The notes below the pieces were generated by a model, which worked only from the letters and a program-made list of their open reading frames with translations, had not been told where the DNA came from and ran no database searches. Positions 1-30,552 of a stretch of 64,000 nt of DNA are shown in pieces. The stretch's first letter is position 1. Every line of letters starts with the position of its first letter. The translations under genes and the position numbers were made by a program. The stretch is from IMG/VR virus record IMGVR_UViG_3300027816_000052, positions 480 through 64,479 of that record. One strand, 5' to 3'. Origin of the DNA: a virus.

Positions 1-2
1 GA

Positions 3-143
3 TATCTAAATTTAGATAAAACACCAATTCAATCCTTGCCGGATAATCTTGATGTTAAAGGGGTAATTTATATTCGTGGAACACCATTAAAAGATAATGA
101 TGAATTGGTTGCGAAATATAGGAAAAAATATAGGATTTTATAG
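3..143 (+). CDS. Window-truncated 3' fragment of an LRR-like repeat family protein, paralog of 42394..43218
   Basis: Frame from nt 3 reads YLNLDKTPIQSLPDNLDVKGVIYIRGTPLKDNDELVAKYRKKYRIL*. This closely matches the C-terminus of 42394..43218. Stop TAG at 141-143. Confidence 0.55.
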   Translation, partial: YLNLDKTPIQSLPDNLDVKGVIYIRGTPLKDNDELVAKYRKKYRIL

Positions 144-155
144 AACTTTTTAATT

Positions 156-635
156 ATGAAAAAGATTAAATTAACAGAATCCGACCTTTATAATATTATA
201 GAGCGAGTTCTTCTTGAGCAAGAGGAAAATAATAAACGTGTTTGGAATACAACTCCAGAACGTTTTATTATGGTTCTTAATAATGTTTTTAATGGAAATT
301 CTGAAATGTTCAGAAAAATTCTTAATAAAAAATATGATAACATTATTATTAATGAAGATTTGGATTTGAGTGAATCACGAATTAAAACCTTACCTGATAA
401 TCTTAAAGTTAAAGGTTATCTTAATTTAAATTATACAAAAATAGAATCCTTACCGGATAATCTTCATGTTGAGGGGAATTTGTATTTAGCTTTTACACGA
501 ATTTATTCTTTACCGGATAATCTTCGTGTTGGAGGTAAAATCTATATTCATGGAACACTATTAGTTAGAAATAGTGATTTAGTTGCGGAATATAGAAACA
601 AACATAAAATTGAAGGATATTTTTGGTCATCATGA
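156..635 (+). CDS. LRR-like 20-aa tandem-repeat family protein, short member with 3 repeats
   Basis: N-terminus MKKIKLTESDLYNIIERVLLEQEE is shared with 25962..26669(-) and 42394..43218. Three xSLPDNLxVxGxLxL repeats. C-terminal GTLLVRNSDLVAEYRNK tail. Confidence 0.7.
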   Translation: MKKIKLTESDLYNIIERVLLEQEENNKRVWNTTPERFIMVLNNVFNGNSEMFRKILNKKYDNIIINEDLDLSESRIKTLPDNLKVKGYLNLNYTKIESLPDNLHVEGNLYLAFTRIYSLPDNLRVGGKIYIHGTLLVRNSDLVAEYRNKHKIEGYFWSS

Positions 636-1027
636 TATCAATAATAATTTTCATATTAATCGCATTATTTGCAAATAGAGAATCTTCTTTTGATTTTACC
701 AAAATAAAAAATCATGAGAAAATTAATCACATTCAATCATGGATATATCGAGCAACTTTTGTTATATTTATAATACTGCTTACGAACCTTTCAATCTTCA
801 ATAAAATAATTTTATCGATAGGTTCAGCATTTTTATTTTCATCAATATTCAGAGCAAGATTAAATCACAGAAGAAAAAAAGATTTAACATATATAAGCAA
901 TAGTAATTATTATGATTCATTTTTTATAAAACTTTTCCCAAAAAAACATGGTATGATGATATATGTTGTTGAAATCATTATCTTTGTAACCCCAACAATA
1001 ATCTATATAGTAACAAACAATGGATAA
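623..1027 (+). CDS. Hypothetical small membrane protein
   Basis: 134-aa ORF with several hydrophobic segments. It overlaps the upstream gene by 13 nt. No recognisable motif. Confidence 0.45.
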   Translation: MVIMISIIIFILIALFANRESSFDFTKIKNHEKINHIQSWIYRATFVIFIILLTNLSIFNKIILSIGSAFLFSSIFRARLNHRRKKDLTYISNSNYYDSFFIKLFPKKHGMMIYVVEIIIFVTPTIIYIVTNNG

Positions 1028-1271
1028 AAAAATATTATACTTTACAGCAGCATGGTGTGGACCATGTAGAGCAATGGCTCCAGCAATTGAAGAACTTTCA
1101 TCGACTCTGAATATTGAAAAAATTGATGTTGACTCAAAGGATGGTAGAATCTTTGATTATAAAATCAAAGCGGTCCCCTCTTTTGTGTTAGTTGACCAAC
1201 AAAATAATGAATTAAAAAGAGTTGTCGGACTTCAATCAAAAGATACATTAAGAAATTTGTTTAACGATTAA
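1020..1271 (+). CDS. trx: Thioredoxin
   Basis: 83 aa with the canonical WCGPC active site (FTAAWCGPCRAMAP). Typical thioredoxin length. Confidence 0.8.
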   Translation: MDKKILYFTAAWCGPCRAMAPAIEELSSTLNIEKIDVDSKDGRIFDYKIKAVPSFVLVDQQNNELKRVVGLQSKDTLRNLFND

Positions 1272-1274
1272 AAA

Positions 1275-1451
1275 ATGTGGGTTATAGTTAAATTTATTAA
1301 AAATAAAGATGGAAAAGAACTTCCAGTAATTATTTTGGACTCTCAAGAAGAAATATTAGAATTTGAGAATGATGAGGACGCACAAAAACAAAAAAATTTG
1401 TTTTTGATTAATTCGGATTCTGGATATAGATATGAAGTAAAGAAAATTTAA
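1275..1451 (+). CDS. Hypothetical small protein (58 aa), not in the supplied ORF track
   Basis: ATG 1275, TAA 1449-1451. Translates MWVIVKFIKNKDGKELPVIILDSQEEILEFENDEDAQKQKNLFLINSDSGYRYEVKKI. Fills the gap between flanking genes. Confidence 0.35.
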   Translation: MWVIVKFIKNKDGKELPVIILDSQEEILEFENDEDAQKQKNLFLINSDSGYRYEVKKI

Positions 1452-1457
1452 CTTCAT

Positions 1458-1652
1458 ATGGATGAATTAAAGAAAAAAATTAAAGAAAGTCACTATAGAA
1501 AATTTTTGGGTGTTGCACCTGAAGGTTTTATTATCATTCCTGAAGTGACATTTGAAAAATTAAAAGATTTTGATTTTTGGAAGGAATGGAAAAATAATCC
1601 TGAATATTTGAGGGAAGAAGCAATTAAAGACACTAAAGAAAATTTTTTTTAG
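1458..1652 (+). CDS. Hypothetical protein
   Basis: 64-aa ORF tightly following the previous gene. No motif recognised. Confidence 0.4.
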   Translation: MDELKKKIKESHYRKFLGVAPEGFIIIPEVTFEKLKDFDFWKEWKNNPEYLREEAIKDTKENFF

Positions 1653-1702
1653 AAAACATTTGGAAGTTTGAAAAGAAGTATCTATCTTTGTGTTGTTAAA
1701 AT

Positions 1703-1778
1703 GCTCCTATAGCTCAGTTGGTCAGAGCGCCAAGCTTATACCTTGGGTCTGTCACAGGTTCAAGTCCTGTTAGGAGTA
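1703..1778 (+). tRNA. tRNA-Ile (anticodon TAT as folded)
   Basis: Hand fold: acceptor GCTCCTA/TAGGAGT, D-arm GCTC...GAGC, anticodon stem CCAAG/CTTGG with loop CTTATAC, T-arm ACAGG-TTCAAGT-CCTGT, 7-nt variable loop. Confidence 0.55.
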
Positions 1779-1786
1779 CGAAATAT

Positions 1787-1860
1787 TGTGGGGTGGAGCA
1801 GATGGTTAGCTCGGAGGTCTCATAAATCTCAGGTCGCTGGTTCAAGTCCAGCCCCCGCAA
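1787..1860 (+). tRNA. tRNA-Met (anticodon CAT; could be a lysidine-modified Ile)
   Basis: Acceptor TGTGGGG/CCCCGCA, D-arm GAGC/GCTC, anticodon stem GAGGT/ATCTC with loop CTCATAA, T-arm GCTGG-TTCAAGT-CCAGC. Confidence 0.75.
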
Positions 1861-2001
1861 CAAAATGTTGATTAGTAGTTTAGTGGTTGAACTAAAAAGA
1901 AAATCTGACGCTCAGTAGCAATAAATACCACCAGTCAGCTTCGTTCTAATTAACATTTTATTTTTATTGTTCTTTGACATATTTATCTTAAAAAAATTAA
2001 T

Positions 2002-2205
2002 ATGCAAAAAATATCTTTTATTAAATTTAATTTTAAAAATGGATTAATTCATTTATTGACATTATTTTTTGGTAGTTTAATATTATTACCAATAACAGGT
2101 AATGAGATTTTTGAATTTAAAATTTGGTTCATTATTTTATTGTTTCTTAGTATCTTTATGACGTACTTCAATTATCGTGTTTGGAAAAAATTAAAAATTA
2201 AATAA
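2002..2205 (+). CDS. Hypothetical small hydrophobic protein
   Basis: 67-aa ORF with two hydrophobic stretches, between tRNA genes. Weak call. Confidence 0.3.
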   Translation: MQKISFIKFNFKNGLIHLLTLFFGSLILLPITGNEIFEFKIWFIILLFLSIFMTYFNYRVWKKLKIK

Positions 2206-2869
2206 TAATTCTTTGATTTATTATGTTTGTGATAATATCAAGATATTTTTGAGAGGTAATCTCTTTAAAATATTTTTGTGCTGATGTATCAATAACACAA
2301 AAATCAATTTTTGCGTCATGACATGCTTTTGACTTTGATTTATCATTTTCTTGAATTTGATTTAATTTTTTAATGCCATAAATTGGTTCATAGTGAAAAA
2401 TTCCATTAAGTTCAAATGCAATATTTAATGATGGAATATAAATATCTAATTCTGAGTTAATAGCTAATTTATCATTAAATTTGATATCTAGGTTTGGGTA
2501 TAAAAATTCTAACTGCGATTGAATCCAAATTTCAAGTTTTGATTTTCTGTTGCCGTGTTTTTTATTTTTATTGTTATATGTTGCGGCACAAGATTTCGAA
2601 CAAAAATGATTTATAGATCTAGAAATTTGATTATTTGCTTTGATAAATTTTTTATCACAATTAGTACATGTAACCTCTTTTCTTTTTTTTGCTGACAAAC
2701 CATTACATTGTATTGAACAAAAACGTAATTGATTTTTTTGTTTTTCAATATTATATTTAATATGTCTTTTTTCAATATAGAAAAAATTATCACAATATTC
2801 ACATATTAATCTTAACTTATCAAAATGTTTTGCATTATAATAATCAAATTCTGAATACGCTTTTTTCAT
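2198..2869 (-). CDS. Cys-rich Zn-finger protein with a C-terminal DUF559/Vsr-like endonuclease motif, a homing-endonuclease-like gene inside the tRNA cluster
   Basis: 223 aa with multiple CxxC pairs (CEYCDN, CSIQCNG, CTNCDKK, CSKSCA). C-terminus LDIYIPSLNIAFELNGIFHYEP resembles the D...E-x-(D/N)-G-x-x-H motif of Vsr/DUF559 endonucleases. Confidence 0.5.
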   Translation of the reverse strand: MKKAYSEFDYYNAKHFDKLRLICEYCDNFFYIEKRHIKYNIEKQKNQLRFCSIQCNGLSAKKRKEVTCTNCDKKFIKANNQISRSINHFCSKSCAATYNNKNKKHGNRKSKLEIWIQSQLEFLYPNLDIKFNDKLAINSELDIYIPSLNIAFELNGIFHYEPIYGIKKLNQIQENDKSKSKACHDAKIDFCVIDTSAQKYFKEITSQKYLDIITNIINQRIII

Positions 2870-2935
2870 TTATACATATATTTATATATAAATATATTAA
2901 ATTTAATTTTCGAATCTGAAGTACTTTGAAATTAT

Positions 2936-3020
2936 GGAGGATCCCACTGGCGCGGTACGTAGTCTTGAAAACTATGAGGTCGGTAATACCGATGTGAAGG
3001 TTCGAGTCCATCATCCTCCG
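2936..3020 (+). tRNA. tRNA-Ser (anticodon TGA), type II with long variable arm; D-arm fold imperfect
   Basis: Acceptor GGAGGAT/ATCCTCC, anticodon stem GTAGT/ACTAT with loop CTTGAAA, variable arm TCGGT-AAT-ACCGA, T-loop GGTTCGAGTCC. Confidence 0.5.
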
Positions 3021-3203
3021 CTAGATAAAATTTGGAAGTTTGAAATTTTAGTTGTATCTTTGTAGAGCGTGTGAAGCATGTGAGCTAAGTTATCGAGGTG
3101 CTTGGTACGATTCGCGGTCGTGTTGCGCTGGAAACCATCAAAGGTTAAAAGACGTGAAACCAAGTTAAATGGTAAAATCTGACACATTCAGCCTTAAATT
3201 TAC

Positions 3204-3276
3204 GCCACTGTAGCTCAATTGGCAGAGCACTAGTTTTGTAAACTAGCGGTTAGCGGTTCGACTCCGCTCAGTGGCT
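3204..3276 (+). tRNA. tRNA-Thr (anticodon TGT); CCA encoded at 3277-3279
   Basis: Acceptor GCCACTG/CAGTGGC, D-arm GCTC/GAGC, anticodon stem CTAGT/ACTAG with loop TTTGTAA, T-arm AGCGG-TTCGACT-CCGCT. Confidence 0.8.
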
Positions 3277-3301
3277 CCAAGAGTTCTTTGAAAAAGTTTG
3301 A

Positions 3302-3432
3302 GAAAAAGCGGAAGTACGAAAGTACGGGAAGATTGTGATAAAAAGAACAAGGAAATAGTCCCTCCCATTGCAGTCACAAGCATAATTGGGTAGAGTGGAA
3401 AGGTGAGTCCACGAACCGCTTTTTCTCATTTT
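3302..3432 (+). ncRNA. Candidate structured small RNA or long hairpin ending in a T-run
   Basis: 10-bp pairing GAAAAAGCGG (3302-3311) with CCGCTTTTTC (3416-3425) encloses about 105 nt with an internal hairpin GTGGA-aaggtgag-TCCAC. Followed by TTTTCTCATTTT. No plausible ORF; GC is locally higher. Confidence 0.25.
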
Positions 3433-3771
3433 ACATGAAAATATAAAATTAGTGAGCAAAGAGAAAGTGACTTCACCAGTCAGCGTAGTATACAACGGAA
3501 GCACGGGCAAGAAAGTAGCATGGTAGCTACCTGAAATAAAAATCGATTGCTGGGACAAAACTGAAAACGTTTAATTGGATACCCTTAAAATGAAGATATA
3601 CCTCACTAACTTTATATTAAAAATTTGTGGTCAGTACGGATTGACGTACCTAGTAAGCTGGTAAATTACATTACGAAGAAACGCTGAAGCGACTAAGAAA
3701 TGTACTAATATGTAATTATTAGTGGGTTGTTGTTAAGTCTTAGTATGTTAGTTTTTAACACCACAAAAAAA

Positions 3772-3845
3772 GCGAGTGTAGCTTAGTTGATTAAAGCGCC
3801 GTCCTTCCAAGTCGGAGATCGTCAGTTTGAGTCTGACCACTCGCT
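3772..3845 (+). tRNA. tRNA-Gly (anticodon TCC)
   Basis: Acceptor GCGAGTG/CACTCGC, D-arm GCTT/AAGC, anticodon stem CCGTC/GTCGG (one U-U) with loop CTTCCAA, T-arm GTCAG-TTTGAGT-CTGAC. Confidence 0.7.
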
Positions 3846-3931
3846 CACTAATCCCCTCTAACCTCTGAAGAAATTCAAGTTATTGGGTAAAACAGTTTCT
3901 TTTCATATTTATAGAATAAACATCTATCAAT

Positions 3932-6900
3932 ATGATTAAGAAAATATTTTTATCATTAGCAATACTTGCTTCAATTTTAAGCAATGCTGCAACATATTAT
4001 GTTTCACCAAACGGAAATGATTCAAATAATGGGACTTCAATAACCACTCCGTGGAAAACAATAAGTAAAGTTAACACCAGACAATTAGTAGCTGGGGACC
4101 AAATTTTATTTGAACGAAATGGAACATACAGAGGTAATTTAACAATTAACTATTCGGGTACCGATGTCAACCCAATTCTAATTTCCACTTATGGTAGTGG
4201 AAATAACCCCATATTACTTGGTTCACAATTAATTTCAAACTGGATATTACATCAAGGAAATATTTGGAAGACTCAAGTAAATGCAACACAAGTTGTTCAT
4301 TTGTTCTTCAATGACAGTTTAATGCCAATTGCAAGATATCCAAATAATGGTTGGTTAAGAAATATACAAGGAACAAATTCTCAAATAACAGATAATCAAT
4401 TAACACAACCAGCGAATTATTGGAATGGTAGTACAATGGTTATTCGTAGTTCTTCTTGGAGTTATGATACAAGTAGAGTTTTATCATATAGTCCGGGGGT
4501 TATTAACTTTAGACCTATTAGTTATAACTTAGGAAACAGTACGTGGGGTTATTTTATCCGAAATAAATTTCAAGAATTAGATGCCCCCGGTGAATGGTTT
4601 TTTGATAAGACCATCAACACATTATATTTTTACTCCCCAACAGGAAACCCAAATTTAAACGCGATTGAAATAATAACAGCCAATCAATCAACAAATGGTG
4701 TAGGAATAAGGGTTACTTGGCAAAGAAATAATATTATTATTGAAAATCTTACAATTAATAAGTATGGTTATGCTGGTGTTAGCACAAGCGGTACATCTAA
4801 TATAACTGTAAGAAATTGTAATATTAGTCAATGTGATCATGGTATGTGGTTATATGGTAATAATCAAATTATTAGAAATAATTTCATCACAAAATGTCCC
4901 CAAATGGGTTTAAATGCTGTTTCTGGTGGAAGCCCAATTAGTTATGGAAACAACAATACATTTGAAGATAATACCATCCAAAATTGTGCATTATATCCCG
5001 GTCTTGGAAAAAGCTCATGGGGTTATTTCGGAATGACCGTCACTGGTTCCAATAATATAATAAGAAAAAATAATATTACAAATATTGGTTATATTGCATT
5101 ATCTTTCGAATCAAACCCATTAATTGAAAATAACTTTATAAGTAATGCATGTTCAATTTTAAATGATGGTTCTGGTATTGCATTTGATAGAACAAATGGT
5201 GCTGTTATTAGAAATAACATTGTTTTAAATACAATTGGTAATATTGAAAGTTGTGCAACAAATACAACCAACTGTGACCCAAAAGGTAAAGGAATATATT
5301 TTGGAAATGTTAGCAATAAAAATAATTTAGTTGATGGTAATACTGTCGCATATTGTAACGGTGCTGGTATTTGGTTTGATCATACTATGCTATCAGAAGG
5401 TAATCAAATTATTAATAATACCTTATTTGGGAACAATTTATATCAATTAGGTATTTCAGATTTTTCAAACTATAATAGTCCCGGAGCAATTGCTCCTTAT
5501 GCAGTTCCGGTGTATAGTAACCAACTTGTTAGAAATAATATTTTTTATTCAAATAACCAACAACAGAAAACCATGTACCACATAAATAAGTGGTATTCTG
5601 GTGTTGATTTTGCAAATTTTAATGAAAATAAATATATTAACCCTTGGGATACTGTTAGTATTCAAGTTTTTGATATAGCAAATAATGGTAATTCTTTAAA
5701 TTATTCATTAAATCAATGGAAAAATGTTAGAGGTGATGACTCTTTATCTACAAACCAACCTTATCTCCCTCAATCCGAATCATCTGATCATATTTTGGTT
5801 TATAATAATCAAATAACAGAACAATCAATTAGTTTACCAAGTGGTACTTGGTCAGATTTAAACGGTAATTTATATAATTCTTCAATTAATATACCAGCAT
5901 TTGAATCAAAACCTTTATTTAATTCATTATTACTTCCTCCACCACCCTCAACCCCAAGCACTATTGTTTCTTTATTGGTTCAAGCTAGTGTTAATTCAAC
6001 AACACCATCAATTACACTTTCATGGATTAGTTATTCCACTGCAACAGGTTATTCTGTGTTCAGAAAATTAAAAAATGCAACATCTTGGGGAAGCGCAATA
6101 GCTACCTTAGGGGGTAGTGCAACTCAGTATGTTGATAATAACGTTTCTTTAAATACATATTATGAATATCGTGTTGTTAGAAACGCTTCTGTTGGTACTG
6201 CATATGGTTATGTTGCAACAGGTATTAATCTCAATACAATTGATTATAGAGGTAAGCTAATATTAGTTGTTGATAATACATTTACAAGTAGTTTATCTTC
6301 ACAACTAACTCAATTACAAAATGATCTAAAATTAGATGGTTGGAATGTTATTAGAGTTGATGTTTCAAGAACAACAACACCAGCGTCAGTAAAATCTCAA
6401 ATACAGACAATTTACAATACTGATCCAACTAATGTAAAATCAGTTTTATTATTTGGGCATGTTCCGGTTTATCGTTCTGGTAATATTGCACCAGATGGAC
6501 ATAGTTTAATTCCTTGGGCATGTGATTCCTATTATGGTGATATGAATGGTTCTTGGACAACACCTCCCACAGCATTACCTTCAGATTTGGAGTTACAAGT
6601 GGGGAGGATTGATTTATTTAATTTACCCGCGTTTGGACAAACAGAACAACAATTATTGTCAAATTATTTAACTAAATTACATCAATTTAAAACAAAACAA
6701 TTTACTCCTCAAAACAGAATGTTAATTCAGGATAATTTAACTTGGGTTAATAATCCACTAGCTGAAACTTCTTATAGAACTGGTGGTCCTTTAGTTGGTG
6801 AAGCAAATATTACAACAATACCAGCAAATAATCAACCAAATTTTGTATCAAGAATGTCTGATGGTTGGTTATGGGGTTATTTTTCTGGTGGTGGAACATA

Positions 6901-8287
6901 CAATTCCGCTGCTGGGATTGGTAATACATCAAATTTCGCAACAACACAAAATAATGTAGTTTTCAATATGAGTTTGGGTAGTTATTTTGGTAATTGGGAT
7001 TCTAGTACACCAGTTCCGGATTGGAATAATAACAATAATAATTTATTAAGAGCGGTATTAGCTAGCGGTCAAGCACTTACAAACGTTTGGGCGGGTTTAC
7101 CAAATTGGTTTTTCCACCACATGGGAATGGGAGATCCTATTGGTTATTCAACAATGTTAACCATTAATAATAGAACATCAAACGCATTATATCAATTACA
7201 AAATGGTGGTTGGCAAGGACAAGGATTAACAACAGTACATCTTGGTTTAATGGGTGATCCGTCATTAAGAATGAATTATGTTGCACCTCCAAGTAATTTA
7301 ACAATAATTAATAATGGAAATTCGTTAACATTTAACTGGACAGCATCAGCAGAGCAGGTTGATGGGTATTATTTATATGAAATTGTTTCTGGTGTACCAA
7401 CAAGAATAACACCAAATCTAATTACAACAAATACATTAACTGGGAATTTTAACTTAACCACTGGTACAGAATATATGGTTAGAGCGGTTAAATTGGTTAA
7501 TAATTTTAGTGGTAGTTATTATAATTTATCATTAGGTTCGGCAAATACGGTACCACAATCGGTAGCACCAACATTAATAGCAAAAGTTTTTCTAGGTGGT
7601 GCGTATGATAATGGTTTAATGTATGATTCATTACGTGTTAAAAATTTAATACCACTTTCTGATCCTTATCCCGCTTTAGGTTATACACATGTAATAGGTG
7701 GTGGACAAACGACAACGCAATCCGTTTTAACAGTTTCAGGAAATTCAGCAATTGTTGATTGGGTGGTTATTGAATTAAGGAATGCAACCACACCATCAAC
7801 CAGAGTATACACAAGAAGTGCTTTAATCCAAAGAGACGGTGATATTGTTGATATGGATGGTGTATCACCGGTTAGTTTACAAATAACTAGTGGTCAGTAT
7901 TATGTTGCAATTAAACATCGAAATCACTTGGGCGTTATGACAGCGCAACCTATTTCTTTGCAGAACAACACAATAATTAATTTTACAACAATTGCAACAT
8001 TTGGAACCGAAGCTCAAAAAACAATTGGTTCTGTAAAAGTAATGTGGGATGGTAATTCTAATTTTGATGACATAATCAAATATACCGGTCAAAATAATGA
8101 TAGGGATTTTATCTTATCTAGAATTGGTGGTGTAATTCCAACTAATGTTGTAACAGGATATTATTCAGAAGATTTAAATATGGATGGTTTTGTTAAATAC
8201 ACCGGTCAAAATAATGATAGAGATATTATCTTATTTAATATTGGTGGTACAACACCTACAAATACAAAAGTTCAACAGATTCCTTGA
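3932..8287 (+). CDS. Giant secreted right-handed beta-helix protein (pectate-lyase/DUF1565-like N-terminus, FN3-like middle, duplicated C-terminal module); possible depolymerase or adhesin
   Basis: 1451 aa. N-terminal signal peptide MIKKIFLSLAILASILSNAATYYVSPNGNDSNNGT...PWKTI. Repeated N-I/V-x-x-x-N parallel beta-helix rungs. C-terminal tandem duplicate YTGQNNDRDFILSRIGG / YTGQNNDRDIILFNIGG. Confidence 0.8.
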   Translation: MIKKIFLSLAILASILSNAATYYVSPNGNDSNNGTSITTPWKTISKVNTRQLVAGDQILFERNGTYRGNLTINYSGTDVNPILISTYGSGNNPILLGSQLISNWILHQGNIWKTQVNATQVVHLFFNDSLMPIARYPNNGWLRNIQGTNSQITDNQLTQPANYWNGSTMVIRSSSWSYDTSRVLSYSPGVINFRPISYNLGNSTWGYFIRNKFQELDAPGEWFFDKTINTLYFYSPTGNPNLNAIEIITANQSTNGVGIRVTWQRNNIIIENLTINKYGYAGVSTSGTSNITVRNCNISQCDHGMWLYGNNQIIRNNFITKCPQMGLNAVSGGSPISYGNNNTFEDNTIQNCALYPGLGKSSWGYFGMTVTGSNNIIRKNNITNIGYIALSFESNPLIENNFISNACSILNDGSGIAFDRTNGAVIRNNIVLNTIGNIESCATNTTNCDPKGKGIYFGNVSNKNNLVDGNTVAYCNGAGIWFDHTMLSEGNQIINNTLFGNNLYQLGISDFSNYNSPGAIAPYAVPVYSNQLVRNNIFYSNNQQQKTMYHINKWYSGVDFANFNENKYINPWDTVSIQVFDIANNGNSLNYSLNQWKNVRGDDSLSTNQPYLPQSESSDHILVYNNQITEQSISLPSGTWSDLNGNLYNSSINIPAFESKPLFNSLLLPPPPSTPSTIVSLLVQASVNSTTPSITLSWISYSTATGYSVFRKLKNATSWGSAIATLGGSATQYVDNNVSLNTYYEYRVVRNASVGTAYGYVATGINLNTIDYRGKLILVVDNTFTSSLSSQLTQLQNDLKLDGWNVIRVDVSRTTTPASVKSQIQTIYNTDPTNVKSVLLFGHVPVYRSGNIAPDGHSLIPWACDSYYGDMNGSWTTPPTALPSDLELQVGRIDLFNLPAFGQTEQQLLSNYLTKLHQFKTKQFTPQNRMLIQDNLTWVNNPLAETSYRTGGPLVGEANITTIPANNQPNFVSRMSDGWLWGYFSGGGTYNSAAGIGNTSNFATTQNNVVFNMSLGSYFGNWDSSTPVPDWNNNNNNLLRAVLASGQALTNVWAGLPNWFFHHMGMGDPIGYSTMLTINNRTSNALYQLQNGGWQGQGLTTVHLGLMGDPSLRMNYVAPPSNLTIINNGNSLTFNWTASAEQVDGYYLYEIVSGVPTRITPNLITTNTLTGNFNLTTGTEYMVRAVKLVNNFSGSYYNLSLGSANTVPQSVAPTLIAKVFLGGAYDNGLMYDSLRVKNLIPLSDPYPALGYTHVIGGGQTTTQSVLTVSGNSAIVDWVVIELRNATTPSTRVYTRSALIQRDGDIVDMDGVSPVSLQITSGQYYVAIKHRNHLGVMTAQPISLQNNTIINFTTIATFGTEAQKTIGSVKVMWDGNSNFDDIIKYTGQNNDRDFILSRIGGVIPTNVVTGYYSEDLNMDGFVKYTGQNNDRDIILFNIGGTTPTNTKVQQIP

Positions 8288-8327
8288 CGAAATAAAGATA
8301 ATATTTTAAATTTAAAAAACCTAAAAC

Positions 8328-8603
8328 ATGTCGCACATATTTTTTGATTCTCCCACATATATTAATATAACTAATTTCTTAAACAAAGAAGAAGGTACAC
8401 CTATTTCTTGGAATGAAATAATGGAAGCATATTTTAAAATTTATCAAATTGAGTTGGAAAAAGTTAAAAGTCTTAAAGAATTGGAGATTTTTCACGCTCA
8501 ATTAGCGGTAAAAAAACTAAATGGTTCCCATAATTTTGAAATTTGGGCGAACACAATCGATAAGTTTTGCGAATCTTGGTTAAAATCAGCGGTTCTTCAA
8601 TAA
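8328..8603 (+). CDS. Hypothetical protein
   Basis: 91-aa ORF downstream of the giant gene. Confidence 0.45.
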   Translation: MSHIFFDSPTYINITNFLNKEEGTPISWNEIMEAYFKIYQIELEKVKSLKELEIFHAQLAVKKLNGSHNFEIWANTIDKFCESWLKSAVLQ

Positions 8604-9113
8604 TTCCAAAATGTCTTTTTTACTTAACTGAGAAAAATGTTCTTTTATTTTTTGCTCAGGACTAATTGGTTTTGGTTTTATTATTTCCTTAATTGTTGAT
8701 TTTTGCTTTGGTTTAGGTACAACAGGTTTTACCGTTTCTTTAACAACTGGTTTTTGTTCTTGTTTAGCAACCTCAACTGTAATTTTTGGTTTGTCGTCAA
8801 TTTGCTCCTGAACGATAACCGCAACCTTTTTATTTGTTTCTACAATATATTCCGAACTCCAAGGTTGGAAAAATACGTCATCAGCAATAACTTCTAATTT
8901 AACAATACCTGTTGATTTTTCAGGTAAAAAGTTTTTTGTTTTCGGTATTGTAACTTCACAGTTACCTCCTTCATAAATAATACCATCAAACATATAATTA
9001 ATTCCCTCAGATTCAACAACTAATCTGACTTTTGAATTAGCTAATGATGTACCATCAACTTGAACGGTACAGCTAAACTTATTGACTTTATCTGTATATA
9101 ATTTATAGCTCAT
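8586..9113 (-). CDS. Hypothetical protein with Lys/Pro-rich C-terminal region
   Basis: 175-aa ORF. KPxxK-rich low-complexity segment. Confidence 0.5.
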   Translation of the reverse strand: MSYKLYTDKVNKFSCTVQVDGTSLANSKVRLVVESEGINYMFDGIIYEGGNCEVTIPKTKNFLPEKSTGIVKLEVIADDVFFQPWSSEYIVETNKKVAVIVQEQIDDKPKITVEVAKQEQKPVVKETVKPVVPKPKQKSTIKEIIKPKPISPEQKIKEHFSQLSKKDILELLKNR

Positions 9114-9115
9114 TT

Positions 9116-9451
9116 TTATTTCTGTTCATTTATAAATATCCCAACTTTTATATTTTTCACTTCAGAAATAAAATTAGCCACGTCTTTTATTGTTACTTTA
9201 ACGTTTTTATTCTTTTGTTTATTTACTCTTTTTTGAAAATTAACGTCTTGAGCGTGAATTTGAACAAATAATTCAATAAGTACTTTTTTTTCCTCTTTAG
9301 ATAATTTTTCTAATTTTTTTCTTATTTGAGATGGCGGACCAGAACCAACCGTCTCAACCACCTTTTTTATAATACAGAAAAACGCCCAAGTTAGCTCAAC
9401 GGTATTCCATTGAACATCAGCATCATTCCATTTATAACAAAAAACACTCAT
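9116..9451 (-). CDS. Hypothetical protein
   Basis: 111-aa ORF immediately upstream of 8586..9113 on the same strand. Confidence 0.5.
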   Translation of the reverse strand: MSVFCYKWNDADVQWNTVELTWAFFCIIKKVVETVGSGPPSQIRKKLEKLSKEEKKVLIELFVQIHAQDVNFQKRVNKQKNKNVKVTIKDVANFISEVKNIKVGIFINEQK

Positions 9452-9548
9452 TTATTTATTTTGTATTTAAAAAGACTAAATTTAAAACTAATAAAGTTAA
9501 ACATAGGTGTATATTTATAATAAATACACAAATATTGAATAGTAAATA

Positions 9549-10262
9549 ATGTCAGATATATCGAATCTTCTTGTTAAAGATACATATGACTATGTTCTTC
9601 AATCTGACATTGTTACAGGTGTAGTATATAGAATTGGTGGTGCGGTACCCGTAAATCCTATATTTTCATCTGGTGCTACCTTTTTACAATCTTTAAGATA
9701 TTCTGACGGAACAGAACAAAGTGGTTATGTTTTAACTTCAGATGTTAATGGTAATGCGTTTTGGGGTCCGGTATCTGGGGCAAGTTCAGGTAATTTTTTA
9801 AATCTAAGTGGCGGTACTGTAAGTGGATTAACAATATTCCAAAGCGGATTAACAACAAATTCATTTACAGCAACAACATTTACTTTTAATAATGGAAATC
9901 AACAAAATGGCTATATTTTAACATCAGATATTAATGGCAATTCTGATTGGAAACCTAGTGGTGCAATAACCGGTATTACTTTATCAGGTAATACATTATT
10001 AATATATAATAATTCAGGTCAAACTATAAGTACTAATGGGTTTATACAAAAATTTGCAATAGATATTGGTGATAGCTCCGCAAATACAATAACAATAAAT
10101 CATAATTTTAATAGTCGAGATATACAAGTTGAGGTTTATAGAAATACTAGTCCTTGGGATACAGTATTTTGTGATATTACTCGTTTAACCGTGAATTCGG
10201 TTAATTTAACTTTTGCAAATCCTCCGGGTATAAATGAATATAGAGTTGTTATAATTAGTTAA
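9549..10262 (+). CDS. Tail-fibre-like protein, paralog A
   Basis: 237 aa, Gly/Ser/Thr/Asn-rich. C-terminal block VEVYRN..PWDTVFCDITRL...LTFANPP..NEYRVVIIS is shared with 10274..10711. Confidence 0.55.
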   Translation: MSDISNLLVKDTYDYVLQSDIVTGVVYRIGGAVPVNPIFSSGATFLQSLRYSDGTEQSGYVLTSDVNGNAFWGPVSGASSGNFLNLSGGTVSGLTIFQSGLTTNSFTATTFTFNNGNQQNGYILTSDINGNSDWKPSGAITGITLSGNTLLIYNNSGQTISTNGFIQKFAIDIGDSSANTITINHNFNSRDIQVEVYRNTSPWDTVFCDITRLTVNSVNLTFANPPGINEYRVVIIS

Positions 10263-10273
10263 TATATATTAAT

Positions 10274-10711
10274 ATGGCAACAACAGAACTTAAAATAGGT
10301 AATCTTGGTGATATTCAAATACAAACCGGAAAAGGTAATCCGAATCATAGTTCATACCCCGGAACGGTTTATTTAGATAAAACTACTGGATTCTTATATA
10401 AAGGAATTAGTGGTACGACTTGGCAATATATTGGTTCCACATATTCTTATTTAATTTATGATTTTTCTGGTGCAACAACAAGTGGTGGTACAGTAAATAA
10501 ATATGTACAAAATATTGGTGATAATATATCTACAACAATAAATGTAAATCACGGATTAAATTCAGAAGATGTTTTGGTTGAGGTTTATAGAAATGGAGTA
10601 CCTAAGGACACAATTTTTTGTGATATAGAAAGAGTTGATGCAAACAATATTCAATTACTTTTTGCAAACCCCCCAACAACAAATGAATATCGTGTGATAA
10701 TTATATCATAA
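10274..10711 (+). CDS. Tail-fibre-like protein, paralog B
   Basis: 145 aa. C-terminal block VEVYRNGVPKDTIFCDIERV...LLFANPPTTNEYRVIIIS closely matches 9549..10262. Confidence 0.55.
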   Translation: MATTELKIGNLGDIQIQTGKGNPNHSSYPGTVYLDKTTGFLYKGISGTTWQYIGSTYSYLIYDFSGATTSGGTVNKYVQNIGDNISTTINVNHGLNSEDVLVEVYRNGVPKDTIFCDIERVDANNIQLLFANPPTTNEYRVIIIS

Positions 10712-10721
10712 TACATAATAT

Positions 10722-13076
10722 ATGCCAAAATTTTTAAAAGAAATAACATTTAGTGGTCAATCAACACCATCAATACCAGATCCCGGTTATGGTTCATTAT
10801 ATATTGATGGATTAACTAATTTATTATATTATATTGATGATGCTGGTGTTACATATAACTTAACGTCAGGTGGAACAGATACTTATGCTACAGGTTTTAC
10901 ATACAATAATGCAAATACGTTAACAATTCAACAAAATAACGCTCAACCTGATTTAACCGCATCAATAAACGTAATGACCGGATTAACAGTTAATGGTAAC
11001 TTATCAGCAACAACAATTGACACTGAATATATTGATTTCTTACCACTAACCGCTAGACCAGCACATTCAGAAGCAAGAATTTATTGGTATGATGATGAAA
11101 ATACCCTTGAACTTCAAACAGAAAATAATGATTTTAATATTGAAGTTGGTCATCAAACCGTTGTTAGAGTTAGAAATACAACCGGTGGTCCCTTAACAAA
11201 AGGGAGACTTGTCTACATTAATGGTGGTTCAGGAAATAATCCGACAGTAACTTTAGCAAGTTATGAAAATGATTTAAATAGTGCAAGAACATTAGGTTTT
11301 CTTGGTACAAATATAAATGATAATCAATTTGGATACGTAATTACAAATGGTATGTTACGTAATGTGAATACCTCAGCTTATTCTACTGGTACACAGTTAT
11401 ATCTATGGTCTGCTGGTACATATTCAAATCAAATTCCCGAAGCACCATTACACGAAGTAAGAGTTGGTATCGTAATTAGACAAAGTGCAACTGTTGGTAT
11501 TATTTTCGTTGCAATAATGAATGGTTATGAGTTAGGTGAACTTCACGATGTTTTAATTTCTGGTTTAACAAATAACGATTTATTACATTATAATTCCTCA
11601 TTAAGTGCTTGGACTAATACACAAAATATACAAATAAATTCTATTTCAGCAACAACTTATCAGAATTTACCAACTGATATTAGAGTAACTGGTGGAACAT
11701 ATTCTGATGGTTCTGCAACATTTACAAATAATACTGGGGGAACATTTACTGTTAGTGGATTCCAAAATTGGAAATGGTATGCTGAAAATACAACTGCACC
11801 AATTGTTCCCCCACAAGCAAACGGAAGTGGTTCAATTGCATTAGGTGATAATGCTTGTGCTAGAGGTGATAATATGTTTGTTTATGGTAACTGTGCTGGT
11901 ATTGGTTCAGTTGTTACAGATAATTCAAATTTCTTAGGTCATAATGCAGGAACAAATTCAGCATATGGATTTAGTTCAAATTTCTTTGGTTGTAAAGCTG
12001 GTAAAGATGCTACATTAGCTAATAATTCAAATTTCTTAGGAGAAAATGCAGGTAATTTAGCAACAAATGCTGATAATTCAAATTTCTTAGGTACAAACTC
12101 AGGTTATTTAGCTACATCAGCTTGTCATTCTAACTTTATTGGTCGTAATGCTGGTTGTAACGCAAAAGGTGCAAATAATTCTAACTTTATTGGTGAAAAT
12201 GCTGGACGTGAAGCTGATTTTGCAACTTATTCAAATTTATTTGGATATAATGCTGGTGCAACATTTGGTTCTAATGTTATTAAAGAAAATAATATTATTA
12301 TTGGTACAAATATTTCATTACCAAATGGTGCAATAAATTCATTAAATATTGGTGCTACAATATTTGGTACTGATTTATATGGTAATACAATTGGAGACCC
12401 CTCTATTACAGTTCAATCTTCAGGTAGAATCGGTATTGGTGTTCTTAATCCAACAACCACATTACACATATCAGGAGCAACCAATCCTTTAAGGATTGAG
12501 GGTTTATTAACATCGGCAAATACTGAATATCTTACAATCAGTCCAACAGGTGTTGTAACAAAAACATCCGGTGCAACTGGGGTTGATACATTTACAACGG
12601 GATTTACTTATTCAAGTAACACGTTCTCAATTTTTAGAAATCAGGGACTCCCAAATCTAACTGCAACAATTAATTCTGTTACCGGATTAACATCTACAGG
12701 AACAATTTCATCAAGTATTATTTCAGCAACAACTTATCAGAATTTACCATATGGTTTAGCTGGGATTAATAATCAAACAGTTACAGCATATACGTTTACT
12801 TTATTGGATTCTGGTTATTTAGTAACATTTAGTTCATCAACCTCTGTCCTAGCAACTATACCAACAAATATATCAGCACCGTTAGCAATTGGATCTCAAA
12901 TTATGCTATCCCAACTTGGCTCCGGACAATTAAGAATTACTGGTGATACGGGTGTTACTTTATATTCTTACGGAAATGCATATAATTTAGTCGGACAATA
13001 TTCTACAGCATTTTTAACTAAACAAGGAACAAATACTTGGATTTTAGATGGAAATTTAACAACTTTAAATTTATAA
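10722..13076 (+). CDS. Tail fibre protein
   Basis: 784 aa, rich in G/S/T/N. Internal repeats (ISATTYQNLP twice; repeated NSNF[LI]G..AG motif). Follows the smaller fibre paralogs. Confidence 0.65.
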   Translation: MPKFLKEITFSGQSTPSIPDPGYGSLYIDGLTNLLYYIDDAGVTYNLTSGGTDTYATGFTYNNANTLTIQQNNAQPDLTASINVMTGLTVNGNLSATTIDTEYIDFLPLTARPAHSEARIYWYDDENTLELQTENNDFNIEVGHQTVVRVRNTTGGPLTKGRLVYINGGSGNNPTVTLASYENDLNSARTLGFLGTNINDNQFGYVITNGMLRNVNTSAYSTGTQLYLWSAGTYSNQIPEAPLHEVRVGIVIRQSATVGIIFVAIMNGYELGELHDVLISGLTNNDLLHYNSSLSAWTNTQNIQINSISATTYQNLPTDIRVTGGTYSDGSATFTNNTGGTFTVSGFQNWKWYAENTTAPIVPPQANGSGSIALGDNACARGDNMFVYGNCAGIGSVVTDNSNFLGHNAGTNSAYGFSSNFFGCKAGKDATLANNSNFLGENAGNLATNADNSNFLGTNSGYLATSACHSNFIGRNAGCNAKGANNSNFIGENAGREADFATYSNLFGYNAGATFGSNVIKENNIIIGTNISLPNGAINSLNIGATIFGTDLYGNTIGDPSITVQSSGRIGIGVLNPTTTLHISGATNPLRIEGLLTSANTEYLTISPTGVVTKTSGATGVDTFTTGFTYSSNTFSIFRNQGLPNLTATINSVTGLTSTGTISSSIISATTYQNLPYGLAGINNQTVTAYTFTLLDSGYLVTFSSSTSVLATIPTNISAPLAIGSQIMLSQLGSGQLRITGDTGVTLYSYGNAYNLVGQYSTAFLTKQGTNTWILDGNLTTLNL

Positions 13077-13079
13077 ATA

Positions 13080-14003
13080 ATGTCAATATTTAGTTACGGA
13101 AATAGATATGCAAACATACCTCTTACAATAATAAGGGAGTATACTGGAGATACTACTTGGAATAAACCAGATGGGATTAAAGAAATTTTGGTTATATGTG
13201 TTGGCGCTGGTGGTGGTGGAGGCGGAGCCGGTCAGCGGAACGGTGCTGCTACTGGAGCATCAGGTGGTGGCGGAGGAATGGTCGGATGGCTTCGCATTGA
13301 CGCTACTAGCCTTGGATTAACAGAAACCATTGTAATCGGAGCGGGTGGAAATGGCGGTAGTGGAGGCACTGGAGCAGCAAGTGCTGGTGCAAATGGTGGT
13401 GCTGGTGGTACAACGTCATTCGGGTCATTTATCAGCGCAGGTGGTGGTTCAGGAGGATTGCGTGGTGAATCAACAGGTACTATTGCTGGTGGTGCTGGTG
13501 GAACTATTGCAAGTGTTCGATTTTTTCTTCCGGGTGCTGCTGGTGGACAAGCAATAACCAACAATATCGGCTCACCCGGATTGAGTGGTTGGGGACAATT
13601 AACATCAGGTGCTGGTGGAGGTGGTGGTGGTGCGTGTTCAAGCGTTACTCCGTTTGCTTGGGCTGCTGGTGCTGGTGGTGGAGTTTTTGATTGGAATGGG
13701 TCAGCATGGACTCTTATTTCAGGCCCTTCCGGACCTGCTGCAAGCGCAGGTGCTGGTGGCAATGGTGTGAATGACCAATGCTTGTATCTTCTCCAGTCAT
13801 TCTCACAGATTCCTACCATTGGACTTGGTACGGGAGGTGCTGGTGGATCCGGTCAGAATGGCACAGGATCAGCTACTGGCAACGCTGGCGGCAATGGAGG
13901 ACGTGCGGCTGGTGGAGGAGGCGGCGGCGCTGTGCGATTTGGAACAGGCGGTAATGGAGGAAACGGAGGAAATGGTCTTTGTATTGTAGTTGAATACTAT
14001 TAA
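13080..14003 (+). CDS. Glycine-rich fibre-like protein with a GC-rich gene body
   Basis: 307 aa dominated by GGxGG / GAGG runs. Gene GC is well above the flanks. Antisense and alternate-frame ORFs are artefacts of the GGN repeats. Confidence 0.6.
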   Translation: MSIFSYGNRYANIPLTIIREYTGDTTWNKPDGIKEILVICVGAGGGGGGAGQRNGAATGASGGGGGMVGWLRIDATSLGLTETIVIGAGGNGGSGGTGAASAGANGGAGGTTSFGSFISAGGGSGGLRGESTGTIAGGAGGTIASVRFFLPGAAGGQAITNNIGSPGLSGWGQLTSGAGGGGGGACSSVTPFAWAAGAGGGVFDWNGSAWTLISGPSGPAASAGAGGNGVNDQCLYLLQSFSQIPTIGLGTGGAGGSGQNGTGSATGNAGGNGGRAAGGGGGGAVRFGTGGNGGNGGNGLCIVVEYY

Positions 14004-14020
14004 ATAATAAAATAAAAAAA

Positions 14021-14221
14021 ATGATTTACTCACTTATTATAAGAAATAATATTGTAATAAATAAGACGATAGGAAATGAATTGTTAACAACATACCCATT
14101 TCCTTATGATTTAATAATTCAAGATGTAAATGAAAATGTTTTAATTGATTCAACATACAATCCAGTGAATGGAACATTTACATTAATTGGTGCTCCGTAT
14201 AACAATGAAAATGGAAATTAA
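14021..14221 (+). CDS. Hypothetical small protein
   Basis: 66-aa ORF directly after the Gly-rich gene. Confidence 0.35.
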   Translation: MIYSLIIRNNIVINKTIGNELLTTYPFPYDLIIQDVNENVLIDSTYNPVNGTFTLIGAPYNNENGN

Positions 14222-14567
14222 TAATTTAATAGAAAAAAACCTTATAGATTTGTAAAACAAATAAAAAACTTATAAATTTGTAAAAAAAATAAAAATGGCG
14301 TTTTATAGAGAAAATTTTTCAGATTACGAAGATTTTAATCATGATTTTTCTTCAAGAAAAGGAAAGAAAAATTTTAAAAAAAGAAAAGGAGAAGATTTTG
14401 AAAGAGGTTTTGGTAATAATAAGAAAAAAAATAAACCAAAACGAGGTAATAGAGATTATGATGATTATTAATACTTTATTTATATTTTATTAAAAAAATA
14501 AGACATTTTTTATTTTTCTTTTTATGAATACGTAATCATCACGATATTTATATAAAAAGAAAAATAA

Positions 14568-15314
14568 ATGATAAAAAAATACATTATACTATTTTTAAGT
14601 TTTTTTATACATTTAAAAATAAATGCACAAAATAGTAATTGTTCATTAGCAATACCATTTATTGATAATGATTGTATATTATTTTCGCCCCCAACAGCAG
14701 GACCGATAACAAGATGTTATTCTTTCTATTTAGTGGATGATTCTGTTGATTTTAATTTTGTTTCATTTGCACCACTAAATACTTGTACTGATGCTATTGC
14801 TTGGTATACGTTATATGATTCAAATTGTGATACAATTACCACAAATTTAGACGGTAATTTTCAAAATCTAATAGAAAATTCTAATTATACTATTTGCTAT
14901 ACAATACAATGTCCAACAAATGGTGTAATTAATTTATTATGTACATATGAATTAATTGTTTTACCAATAGAGTTATTATATTTTAATGCTCGTATTGAAT
15001 ATAACAACATAAGATTAATATGGGAAACAACTACCGAAACAAATAATTGTTGTTTTACACTATACCACTCAACTGATTTTGTAAATTGGTTGAGTATCGG
15101 TAGAGTAGACGGTGCTGGTAATTCAATAACACCGCTATCATATAGTTTTATTTTTAATAATCCAAGTAATGGTGTAAATTATTTTAAATTAATTCAAGAA
15201 GATTTTGATGGTAAACGCACTGAGTTTAATATTTTAGCGATTCCTTTTATAAAAAAAACCAAACCAAACGATATATTTCAAAAATACAATATATTAGGTC
15301 AACAAATTAAATAA
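14568..15314 (+). CDS. Secreted hypothetical protein with signal peptide
   Basis: 248 aa. N-terminus MIKKYIILFLSFFIHLKINAQ is signal-peptide-like. Cys-rich mature part. Confidence 0.55.
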   Translation: MIKKYIILFLSFFIHLKINAQNSNCSLAIPFIDNDCILFSPPTAGPITRCYSFYLVDDSVDFNFVSFAPLNTCTDAIAWYTLYDSNCDTITTNLDGNFQNLIENSNYTICYTIQCPTNGVINLLCTYELIVLPIELLYFNARIEYNNIRLIWETTTETNNCCFTLYHSTDFVNWLSIGRVDGAGNSITPLSYSFIFNNPSNGVNYFKLIQEDFDGKRTEFNILAIPFIKKTKPNDIFQKYNILGQQIK

Positions 15315-15329
15315 TAAAAACCACCAACC

Positions 15330-15947
15330 ATGAACAAAGTTTTATTAATATTTTTAATGTTATTATCAGTCAATGTTTTTTCACAAAATATTGTTAATGC
15401 TAAAATAACACAAATAACATCATCATATATTGATGTTACGTTATATCCCTCAATTTATGAAACTTCTGTATTATCCAATGTTGTATTTACTCTAAAATGG
15501 GAAAATAAACAAAATATATCTTTTGGTGAGCCGCAATTAGATAATTCATTAATTGTTAAAAAATCAGGACCGGTTTTAACAAATGACACTTGGAAATATC
15601 AAATATTTTGCGGATTTAGTTTTGTTATTACAAATATTGGTCAACCAATTATAATTCGCATACCAAAATCCGGAAACGCTAATTTAATAGTAGCAACAGA
15701 TGAATTTGTTAAAAATATTATGGTAAATGGTGATTATTATGTCTCAATTGGTGGACAAGATGTTACGGGTGAAATTTTGGAAGGAAAGTCCATTGAGTTT
15801 GAAGAAACTAATCAACATAAAATGTATTTCGACCAGAGATTTAATAGATTTTTATTTGAGGTAAATGGTGTTTTTTTAACAACTTTAGGTCAGTACATTG
15901 ATGTTCAAGATAAAACAAATTTAATTTTAGTTAAAAAAGTTAACTAG
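15330..15947 (+). CDS. Secreted hypothetical protein with signal peptide
   Basis: 205 aa. N-terminus MNKVLLIFLMLLSVNVFSQ. Confidence 0.55.
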   Translation: MNKVLLIFLMLLSVNVFSQNIVNAKITQITSSYIDVTLYPSIYETSVLSNVVFTLKWENKQNISFGEPQLDNSLIVKKSGPVLTNDTWKYQIFCGFSFVITNIGQPIIIRIPKSGNANLIVATDEFVKNIMVNGDYYVSIGGQDVTGEILEGKSIEFEETNQHKMYFDQRFNRFLFEVNGVFLTTLGQYIDVQDKTNLILVKKVN

Positions 15948-15996
15948 TATTTGTAGCAATCACTTTTTTGTATTATCTTCGCACAAAATAAAAACA

Positions 15997-16179
15997 ATGA
16001 AAGATAAACTTTATAGAACAGATAATTGTATAGTTGGTGGTGTTTGTAGTGGATTGGGTGAATACTTTAATATCGATGAAAATATTATCAGGGTTGCATT
16101 TTTCTTAGCAATCTTCACACCCTTTCCAATCATTATCACATACCTTTTTATGTGGATGCTAGTTCCAAATCAAAGATAA
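15997..16179 (+). CDS. PspC-domain small membrane protein
   Basis: 60 aa. LYRTDNCIVGGVCSGLGEYFNIDENIIRVAFF followed by a TM helix matches the PspC N-terminal domain pattern. Confidence 0.65.
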   Translation: MKDKLYRTDNCIVGGVCSGLGEYFNIDENIIRVAFFLAIFTPFPIIITYLFMWMLVPNQR

Positions 16180-16790: not shown

Positions 16791-16882
16791 TCACAAATCT
16801 TTTAATATAAATATATTAAAAATGTAAATAGAAAAAAAAAATACCATCGAATGATGGTATTTATAAAACTTTTTTATTTAAT

Positions 16883-17056
16883 TTAGTTTTTTGTTGTGTC
16901 TACCGCTGTTGTGTCAACAGAAACCATTGTGGTATCAGCAACCATAGCAGAATCAACAGAAACCGCAGTAGTGTCTACAGTAGCGGTTTCTTCTGTTGTT
17001 ACAGGAGTTCCGCATGATGCTAAAACTACTAAAGAACCAAGAACAATTTTTTTCAT
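16883..17056 (-). CDS. Small lipoprotein (57 aa), not in the ORF track; preferred over the antisense ORF 16896..17090
   Basis: Reverse complement reads MKKIVLGSLVVLASCGTPVTTEETATVDTTAVSVDSAMVADTTMVSVDTTAVDTTKN: signal peptide plus lipobox LASC. Confidence 0.5.
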   Translation of the reverse strand: MKKIVLGSLVVLASCGTPVTTEETATVDTTAVSVDSAMVADTTMVSVDTTAVDTTKN

Positions 17057-17167
17057 TTTTTGTTTTTTTATATGTTTATTTGTACAATAATTATCAAAAA
17101 AGATGAAAAAGTCAAATATTTTAAAAATTTTATTTTATTTGTGATATTTATAGTAAAATAATTCATT

Positions 17168-17500: not shown

Positions 17501-17540
17501 TATTCTAATCCCGTCGAATTCGAGGGGTTTAAAAGCAAAA

Positions 17541-18889: not shown

Positions 18890-18904
18890 AGAAAAGGGGG
18901 AAAC

Positions 18905-30537: not shown

Positions 30538-30552
30538 GTTTATTATTTCTTG

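Follow-up and report, generated by a model that had tools for sequence, protein, structure and literature searches.

A large beta-helix protein with a predicted signal peptide and host-exoprotein modules in a T4-like jumbo phage

Positions 480 to 64,479 of the IMG/VR virus record IMGVR_UViG_3300027816_000052 (64,000 nucleotides, hereafter the window) carry an intact open reading frame (ORF) for a protein of 1451 amino acids (aa), the target of this analysis. Sequence content assigns the window to part of a T4-like jumbo phage, whose host is probably an uncultured freshwater or wastewater member of the Flavobacteriales; the T4-like affiliation follows from its 22 tRNAs and from genes for a terminase, a portal and a Gp23 capsid. 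The target gene begins 86 nt past a tRNA-Gly gene (3772-3846), with a tRNA cluster upstream. A protein identical to its product is also encoded on contigs of up to 256 kb, phage contigs from lake metagenomes carry the identical gene, and its gene neighbourhood recurs across freshwater metagenomes. Scans for sigma-70 promoters and terminators around the gene scored no better than they did on shuffled sequence, copies of the T4 late-promoter motif TATAAATA had no useful placement ahead of the target or of the structural genes, and no paralogues of the three modules of the protein (A, B and C) were found elsewhere in the window. The protein is organised as follows, module B comprising the two fibronectin type III (Fn3) domains and the domain between them.

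3932..8287, + strand: target ORF, 1451 aa, ATG start, intact
3932..3988, + strand: Sec (SPase I type) signal peptide, aa 1-19, predicted cleavage between SNA and AT
3989..5926, + strand: module A, aa 20-665, right-handed parallel beta-helix with a GH141/GH120/GH136-like glycosidase fold
5927..5962, + strand: Pro/Ser/Thr linker LLLPPPPSTPST, aa 666-677
5963..6235, + strand: Fn3 domain 1, aa ~678-768
6236..7270, + strand: gingipain-fold (clan CD, C25-like) domain, aa ~769-1113
7271..7561, + strand: Fn3/Ig-like domain 2, aa ~1114-1210
7562..8284, + strand: module C, aa 1211-1451 (~240 aa), beta-sandwich plus two loop-helix repeats, ending ...QQIP
8051..8167, + strand: C-terminal repeat 1, aa 1374-1412, GNSNFDDIIKYTGQNNDRDFILSRIGGVIPTN..., strand-loop-helix in the predicted structure (AlphaFold2, AF2)
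8168..8284, + strand: C-terminal repeat 2, aa 1413-1451, EDLNMDGFVKYTGQNNDRDIILFNIGGTTPTNTKVQQIP, containing the calcium-loop-like motif DxNxDG

The N-terminus reads MIKKIFLSLAILASILSNA followed by ATYYVS and combines a basic n-region, a 13-residue hydrophobic core and a c-region with S-N-A at positions -3 to -1; the signal peptide is predicted to be cut after Ala19. By a crude hydrophobicity test, a signal-peptide-like N-terminus is present in the target and in 24 of 29 phage-clade homologues, the remaining five being truncated or having mis-called starts, and a YYVS motif lies at aa 21-25 in every phage-clade homologue with a signal peptide. An initial annotation, made from the sequence alone, had proposed a 1451-aa ORF with a signal peptide, more than ten parallel beta-helix rungs and a duplicated C-terminal module; all three features were borne out.

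Module A begins immediately behind the signal peptide. The AF2 model of aa 1-680 (pLDDT 94.3) places ~13 rungs from aa ~245 to aa ~570; one beta-sandwich is inserted and a second lies C-terminal to the helix. Pfam recognised Beta_helix (7e-10) and NosD. A Foldseek search with the model returned cellular glycosidases as the best matches: BT_1002 (GH141, 5mqp; E 4e-18, TM 0.53-0.60), XylC (GH120, 3vst; E 2e-15) and the GH136 lacto-N-biosidases (E 4e-10 to ~1e-8). None of these best matches is a trimeric spike. Phage tailspikes also matched significantly but more weakly (E 1e-9 to 1e-6, TM 0.16-0.34). A profile of the module A family searched against the PDB likewise recovered GH136 (8e-23) and GH141 (6e-13), with E-values ranging from 8e-23 to 7e-11. 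Like BT_1002, XylC and LnbX and its relatives (GH136), the target has a beta-helix, an inserted beta-sandwich and a YYVS...G(N/D)D..NGT cap; unlike them it shares only 12-16% sequence identity with these enzymes, and the Pfam model GH141_M scored below its cut-off (16.8 bits against 27). The NCBIfam rhamnogalacturonidase model scored 20.9 bits against a cut-off of 500.

The start of the helix had initially been ascribed to DUF1565. This attribution did not hold, as the Pfam DUF1565 model does not match the YYVSPNGND...PWKTI start, which is instead the N-terminal cap common to GH136, GH120 and GH141 glycosidases. The cap motif begins at aa 21, and an N-terminal adaptor or virion-attachment domain is absent. 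Three acidic residues (E221, D412 and D483) do not vary across 62 homologues, and three more (E399, D419 and D510) reach at least 90% conservation, which fits with a retained active site. The GH136 and GH141 HMM alignments span the N-terminal cap only, so these residues could not be matched to known catalytic ones. Homologues of module A from bacteria (~40% identity) end in either a type A C-terminal domain (CTD) of a type IX secretion system (T9SS) or module C.

Module B combines the caspase-like fold of clan CD with an IgSF domain of the kind found in family C25, and it lies within the second AF2 model (aa 665-1451, pLDDT 93.3). Pfam Peptidase_C25 matches a bacterial homologue; the target itself has no Pfam C25 match. 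With moderate confidence, we set the register of the expected His/Cys dyad by the RgpB motifs GHG, ACVNG and GDPSL, which we take to mark the corresponding sites; in the 58 homologues these sites read S/C-G-G-G and F-N-M-(S/T)-(F/L)-G-S-Y. The canonical dyad is thus apparently absent: unlike the gingipains RgpB and Kgp, which are C25 enzymes with an IgSF domain, the target family has Gly at one position and a variable Ser/Thr-Phe/Leu at the other. Because of these residues at the dyad sites, the domain is probably not a cysteine protease. Three other residues, H857, D865 and H1062, are ~93% conserved (54/58 sequences). The motifs PDGH...W.CD.YYG (aa 853-865, ~6488-6526) and FHHMGMGD (aa 1060-1068, ~7109-7135) are nearly invariant in the same 58 phage and bacterial homologues, and may form an alternative metal or active site. 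Bacterial homologues of module B (45-50% identity) are found in proteins with a T9SS CTD or TSP3 repeats, and this gingipain-fold domain, apparently without the catalytic dyad, is widespread in the same uncultured bacteria that carry module C.

Module C closes the protein. Its last two units, the repeats that had been noticed initially, are identical at 20 of 39 residues. Neither the target nor 69 relatives matched any Pfam or NCBIfam model in this region, and none matched the T9SS type A (PF18962/TIGR04183) or type B (PF13585/TIGR04131) models. A profile search nevertheless recovered 13,218 cluster representatives at E<=1e-3, 4,364 of which reach E<=1e-30. In GTDB species genomes at least 578 loci were found, nearly all of them in metagenome-assembled genomes (MAGs) of uncultured Flavobacteriales from lakes and wastewater plants, and a single genome often has several copies; in IMG/VR only 4 module C loci were found. 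The end of module C is the exact C-terminus of the protein in 203 of 210 complete copies (97%), and a Q-[LIVMF]-P end is present in 193 of 206. The domains to which it is fused include M36 and S8 peptidases, lipase, BACON, PKD, HYR, MAM, LamG, Kelch, GEVED and DUF5122. Among bacterial homologues, module C seems to stand in the place of a T9SS sorting domain, the two being interchangeable in position. They are not detectably homologous, given that hhalign against the type A CTDs of the homologues returned a probability of 1.6%, and this comparison ruled out module C as a divergent type A CTD. Similarity to dockerins is marginal (PDB 3ul4_B, E 0.83; Pfam Dockerin_1 in 1 of 69 members, at 0.006), as are EF-hand and FG-GAP matches to the repeats; one module C protein (P0292) contains a cohesin domain. 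With its placement at the extreme C-terminus and its invariant QLP end, module C has the look of a signal for sorting or processing.

Homologues from other phages show how these modules are combined. The phage clade comprises at least 25 full-length variants with 50-83% identity, in two architectures: A+B+C (~1450 aa) and A+C (~910 aa). Proteins consisting of a signal peptide with modules B and C (~800 aa) occur on similar contigs, some of them clearly phage-like in context. The signal peptide is kept in all phage relatives with a complete N-terminus, whichever of the three architectures they have. In the B+C proteins it is fused straight onto the linker (P0123), and in the 911-aa homologues module A is joined to module C at the linker, which these fusions mark as the recombination joint between modules. 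An A+B+C gene (P0017) and an A+C gene (P0019) occupy one syntenic slot, Metallophos ... gene ... RNaseH ... gp25. The gene P0003 adjoins TROVE, and in another phage its slot holds a B+C gene with a signal peptide, upstream of which, and divergent from it, lies the gene of a beta-helix protein with a TIGR03790-type C-terminal domain and no signal peptide. Such swaps at shared slots indicate that the modules are shuffled at the linker. The genes beside the phage orthologues are non-structural (TROVE, NUDIX, RNaseH, Metallophos).

Beta-helix paralogues also exist in related phages (L092:1493-4687, minus strand; also P0056, P0048 and P0058). They are 42% identical to module A, those of the P0056 type have no signal peptide, and a TIGR03790-family domain replaces modules B and C, giving a second kind of C-terminal domain on the beta-helix. 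The signal peptide thus disappears where there is no need for it. Since the signal peptide has been dropped in some paralogues of related phages, its retention in the target is meaningful.

Two further genes of the window encode signal-peptide proteins that may be companions of the target.

14568..15314, + strand: possible companion, signal-peptide protein of 248 aa with a Cys-rich N-terminal half and an Fn3-like C-terminal half
15330..15947, + strand: possible companion, signal-peptide protein of 205 aa

Homologues of the 248-aa protein adjoin B+C or A+C genes on three other viral contigs whose GC contents are very different (L095, 47% identity; L094, 34%; L091, partial). On L095 a homologue of the 205-aa protein (33% identity) adjoins that of the 248-aa protein, and further homologues of the 205-aa protein flank module C genes at two bacterial MAG loci (L048 and L025). 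L095 and L094 are viral IMG/VR contigs with GC contents of 47% and 58%, respectively. These arrangements hint, tentatively, at a small cassette of secreted proteins.

We conclude that the target is probably a phage-encoded, Sec-exported, secreted or surface-targeted glycan-acting enzyme of host-exoprotein origin, and not a tail spike. The initial annotation had offered two possibilities, a secreted polysaccharide-acting enzyme or adhesin, and an unusual tail-spike depolymerase. The former fits the conserved signal peptide, the host-exoprotein modules, the sharing of module C with thousands of bacterial exoproteins and the non-structural contexts of the orthologues; the latter is poorly supported, with no N-terminal attachment domain, no PHROG match and weaker structural matches to tailspikes. 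The accompanying description as a prophage moron does not suit the window, which derives from a T4-like jumbo phage with a tRNA arsenal.

In the mechanism that we propose, the infected cell would make the target as a pre-protein, Sec would export it, and the signal peptide would be removed after Ala19. Module C would then direct or tether the protein to the destination of the host exoproteins, the cell surface or exterior. There the GH141/GH136/GH120-like beta-helix would bind, and probably cleave, a glycan, while the Fn3 domains and the apparently non-proteolytic gingipain-fold domain between them could act as a spacer or binding block. The most likely role would be the remodelling or removal of surface polysaccharide on the infected cell or its neighbours, serving either receptor destruction or superinfection exclusion, or else the easier escape of progeny. 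Receptor or capsule removal and superinfection exclusion are favoured over foraging for polysaccharide as a nutrient.

We also consider, more tentatively, a broader possibility concerning module C itself: it might be a previously undescribed third class of C-terminal secretion or surface-anchoring signal that replaces T9SS type A and B domains in an uncultured lineage of Flavobacteriales, and that jumbo phages have captured to send their own enzymes, along with small signal-peptide companions, to the surface of the infected cell. We regard this idea as possible rather than probable.

Several points weigh against a secreted or surface-targeted enzyme. The signal peptide was called by eye with the help of a crude hydrophobicity and charge heuristic. 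Module C is not a recognised sorting domain, the T9SS type A and B models giving no match, and in the AF2 model its last 80 aa are loop-helix repeats, unlike the beta-sandwich of known CTDs; for these two reasons passage across the outer membrane is something that we infer. Module A could be a binding domain only. Finally, fibre-like genes lie only 1.3 kb from the target, another module C gene lies near a tail-fibre gene on the contig L096, and the structural matches to phage tailspikes, while weaker than those to the glycosidases, are significant.

Retention in the periplasm would account for a signal peptide that is accompanied by no recognised outer-membrane export signal. Under this alternative, the enzyme would act from inside on an envelope glycan, such as export intermediates of capsule or lipopolysaccharide (LPS) or polymers linked to peptidoglycan, and would aid lysis or block receptor display, with module C serving as a binding domain. 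Among phage proteins with a signal peptide, Spackle of T4 is known to be periplasmic. Against this alternative, the proteins that end in module C are typical extracellular enzymes and adhesin-type proteins (M36, S8, lipase, BACON, PKD, GEVED), and module C alternates with the T9SS CTD among homologues, while its strict placement at the extreme C-terminus and its invariant QLP end resemble a sorting or processing signal. We consider a purely periplasmic enzyme unlikely.

The second alternative is a virion tail-spike depolymerase, located on the baseplate or fibres and digesting capsule or LPS at adsorption, in which the hydrophobic N-terminus would be unused as a signal or would be an assembly feature. 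The structural matches in question are to tailspikes of Klebsiella, Pseudomonas and Acinetobacter phages, and the module C gene on L096 stands beside the tail-fibre gene. The initial annotation had also placed the target at the head of the tail-fibre block. Fibre genes are indeed close by: four fibre-like genes (9549-14003, + strand) have PHROG matches to head decoration or virion structural protein, minor tail protein and tail-fibre assembly. The target is not directly adjacent to them, however: between it and these genes lie three small ORFs, of which two (8586-9113 and 9116-9451) are on the minus strand. The link is loose and is absent as a conserved feature from relatives. Comparison with Klebsiella phage K64-1 S2-4, LKA1 gp49, phi297 gp61 and AP22 gp54 illustrates both sides. 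Like these tailspikes, the target is a phage-encoded right-handed beta-helix with a probable polysaccharide target; tailspikes, however, are trimers that lack a signal peptide and bind the particle through an N-terminal domain, whereas in the target a conserved Sec-type signal peptide abuts the first rung with no adaptor domain between them. Moreover, cellular GH141 and GH120 enzymes are far better structural matches (TM 0.5-0.6 against 0.16-0.34), a profile search of PHROGs found no family match for the target, its orthologues lie among non-structural genes, and its C-terminal module is common to more than 10,000 bacterial exoproteins. The likelihood of a tail spike is therefore low.

A third alternative dispenses with catalysis. 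Here the protein would be an adhesin or a post-lysis decoration, its beta-helix and Fn3 domains binding glycans and its dockerin-like repeats docking to a cohesin-like partner on cells or released virions. The duplicated DxNxDG loop-helix unit with its marginal dockerin, EF-hand and FG-GAP matches would suit such a function, as would the cohesin domain of P0292, the apparent loss of the catalytic dyad from the gingipain-fold domain and the failure of the acidic residues of module A to map onto known catalytic residues. The dockerin similarity is not significant, however, a cohesin-like partner was not found in the window, and the successive rungs of module A bear invariant acidic residues, which suggest that an active site has been retained. 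We accordingly give this explanation little credence. That the gene is a mere passenger, a recently captured host gene with no phage role, is very improbable: while every module has close bacterial relatives (40-55% identity), the phage variants, although their phages are divergent, have all retained signal peptide, reading frame and every domain, are more similar to each other than to bacterial proteins, and occupy conserved slots.

The closest precedent for a secreted glycan-acting enzyme of a Bacteroidota phage is the cryoconite phage 'Cryophage', which has a genome of 76 kb and belongs to Bacteroidetes hosts (Bellas et al. 2020, PMC7468147). It carries three genes that vary strongly among phage variants, encoding an endoglucanase, a GH39 enzyme and a PA14 protein, with T9SS type A sorting domains, and was proposed to hijack host secretion either for extra enzymatic capacity or for superinfection exclusion (PMC7468147). 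The target resembles this case in that a phage of Bacteroidota encodes a host-like secreted, glycan-active or adhesin-type protein ending in a sorting-type domain. It differs in having the 240-aa module C in place of a T9SS type A CTD, in its T4-like jumbo carrier, in the additional gingipain-fold domain and in varying by whole-module swaps (A+B+C, A+C and B+C). As defined in PMC12618676, T9SS substrates have an N-terminal Sec signal peptide; the target has a predicted one and lacks a type A or B C-terminal domain.

Other T4-like phages encode auxiliary proteins with signal peptides, such as cyanophage PstS and T4 Spackle, which are small, single-domain and periplasmic. The target is like them in being a protein of a lytic T4-like phage that is predicted to be exported by host Sec to act outside the cytoplasm during infection, and unlike them in being an exoprotein of 160 kDa with several domains, among them a putative module for surface targeting. 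The GH32 enzymes of Bacillus phages were also considered as a precedent and dismissed, as they are without signal peptides.

If the proposed function is correct, large lytic phages that infect environmental Flavobacteriales use enzymes taken from their hosts to reprogramme the surface or secretome of infected cells, and the sole earlier report of T9SS cargo encoded by a phage is extended. Enzymes of this kind are relevant to superinfection exclusion, to the removal of receptors or capsules, and to how polysaccharides are turned over in lakes and wastewater plants. A side finding is possibly weightier: a C-terminal domain that resembles a sorting tag and has no Pfam or NCBIfam model is present in more than 13,000 protein clusters, and it makes the export or anchoring of a large share of the exoproteome of uncultured Bacteroidota directly testable.

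The remaining features of the window concern the identity of the phage and its other genes. The GC content is ~30%, and the 22 tRNA genes fall into three clusters and one isolated tRNA-Val. A megablast search of positions 1-20000 against INPHARED phages returned zero matches, none of these phages being close at the DNA level.

50298-52067: large terminase
52080-55220, + strand: portal, 1046 aa
59138-60997: Gp23-type capsid protein
1703-3846, 35400-36310 and 39526-41547: tRNA clusters
30552-30627, - strand: isolated tRNA-Val

Two of the window genes appear to contain insertions. In the portal, HNH-endonuclease PHROG matches at aa ~448-579 suggest an intein or a homing-endonuclease insertion. 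A ClpA/ClpB-like ATPase gene (18905-21391, - strand) has an intein-like insert within its P-loop (GEPG/C...SSHN/CGKTA, slashes marking the insert boundaries), with an in-frame TAA at 24 aa and an ATG two codons later; it could be a decayed intein or an atypically split one whose N-fragment is very short.

Near this gene lie a signal-peptide protein with a weak YkwD/CAP-like match (21508-22068, + strand) and a small protein whose N-terminus, ...LMTSC, resembles that of a lipoprotein (22153-22428, + strand). Several proteins of the phage seem to be directed to the envelope. Among the fibre-like genes, that at 13080-14003 (+ strand) is glycine-rich (Pfam Gly_rich_2) and has a local GC content of 41% against 30% elsewhere; the long antisense Pro/Ala-rich ORF at 13232-13819 (- strand) is almost certainly an artefact of its repeat composition. 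The Gp23 capsid gene is immediately followed by the gene of a 490-aa protein (61072-62544, + strand) that contains a Mom-family domain (PF25680, 5e-19) and may function in DNA modification.

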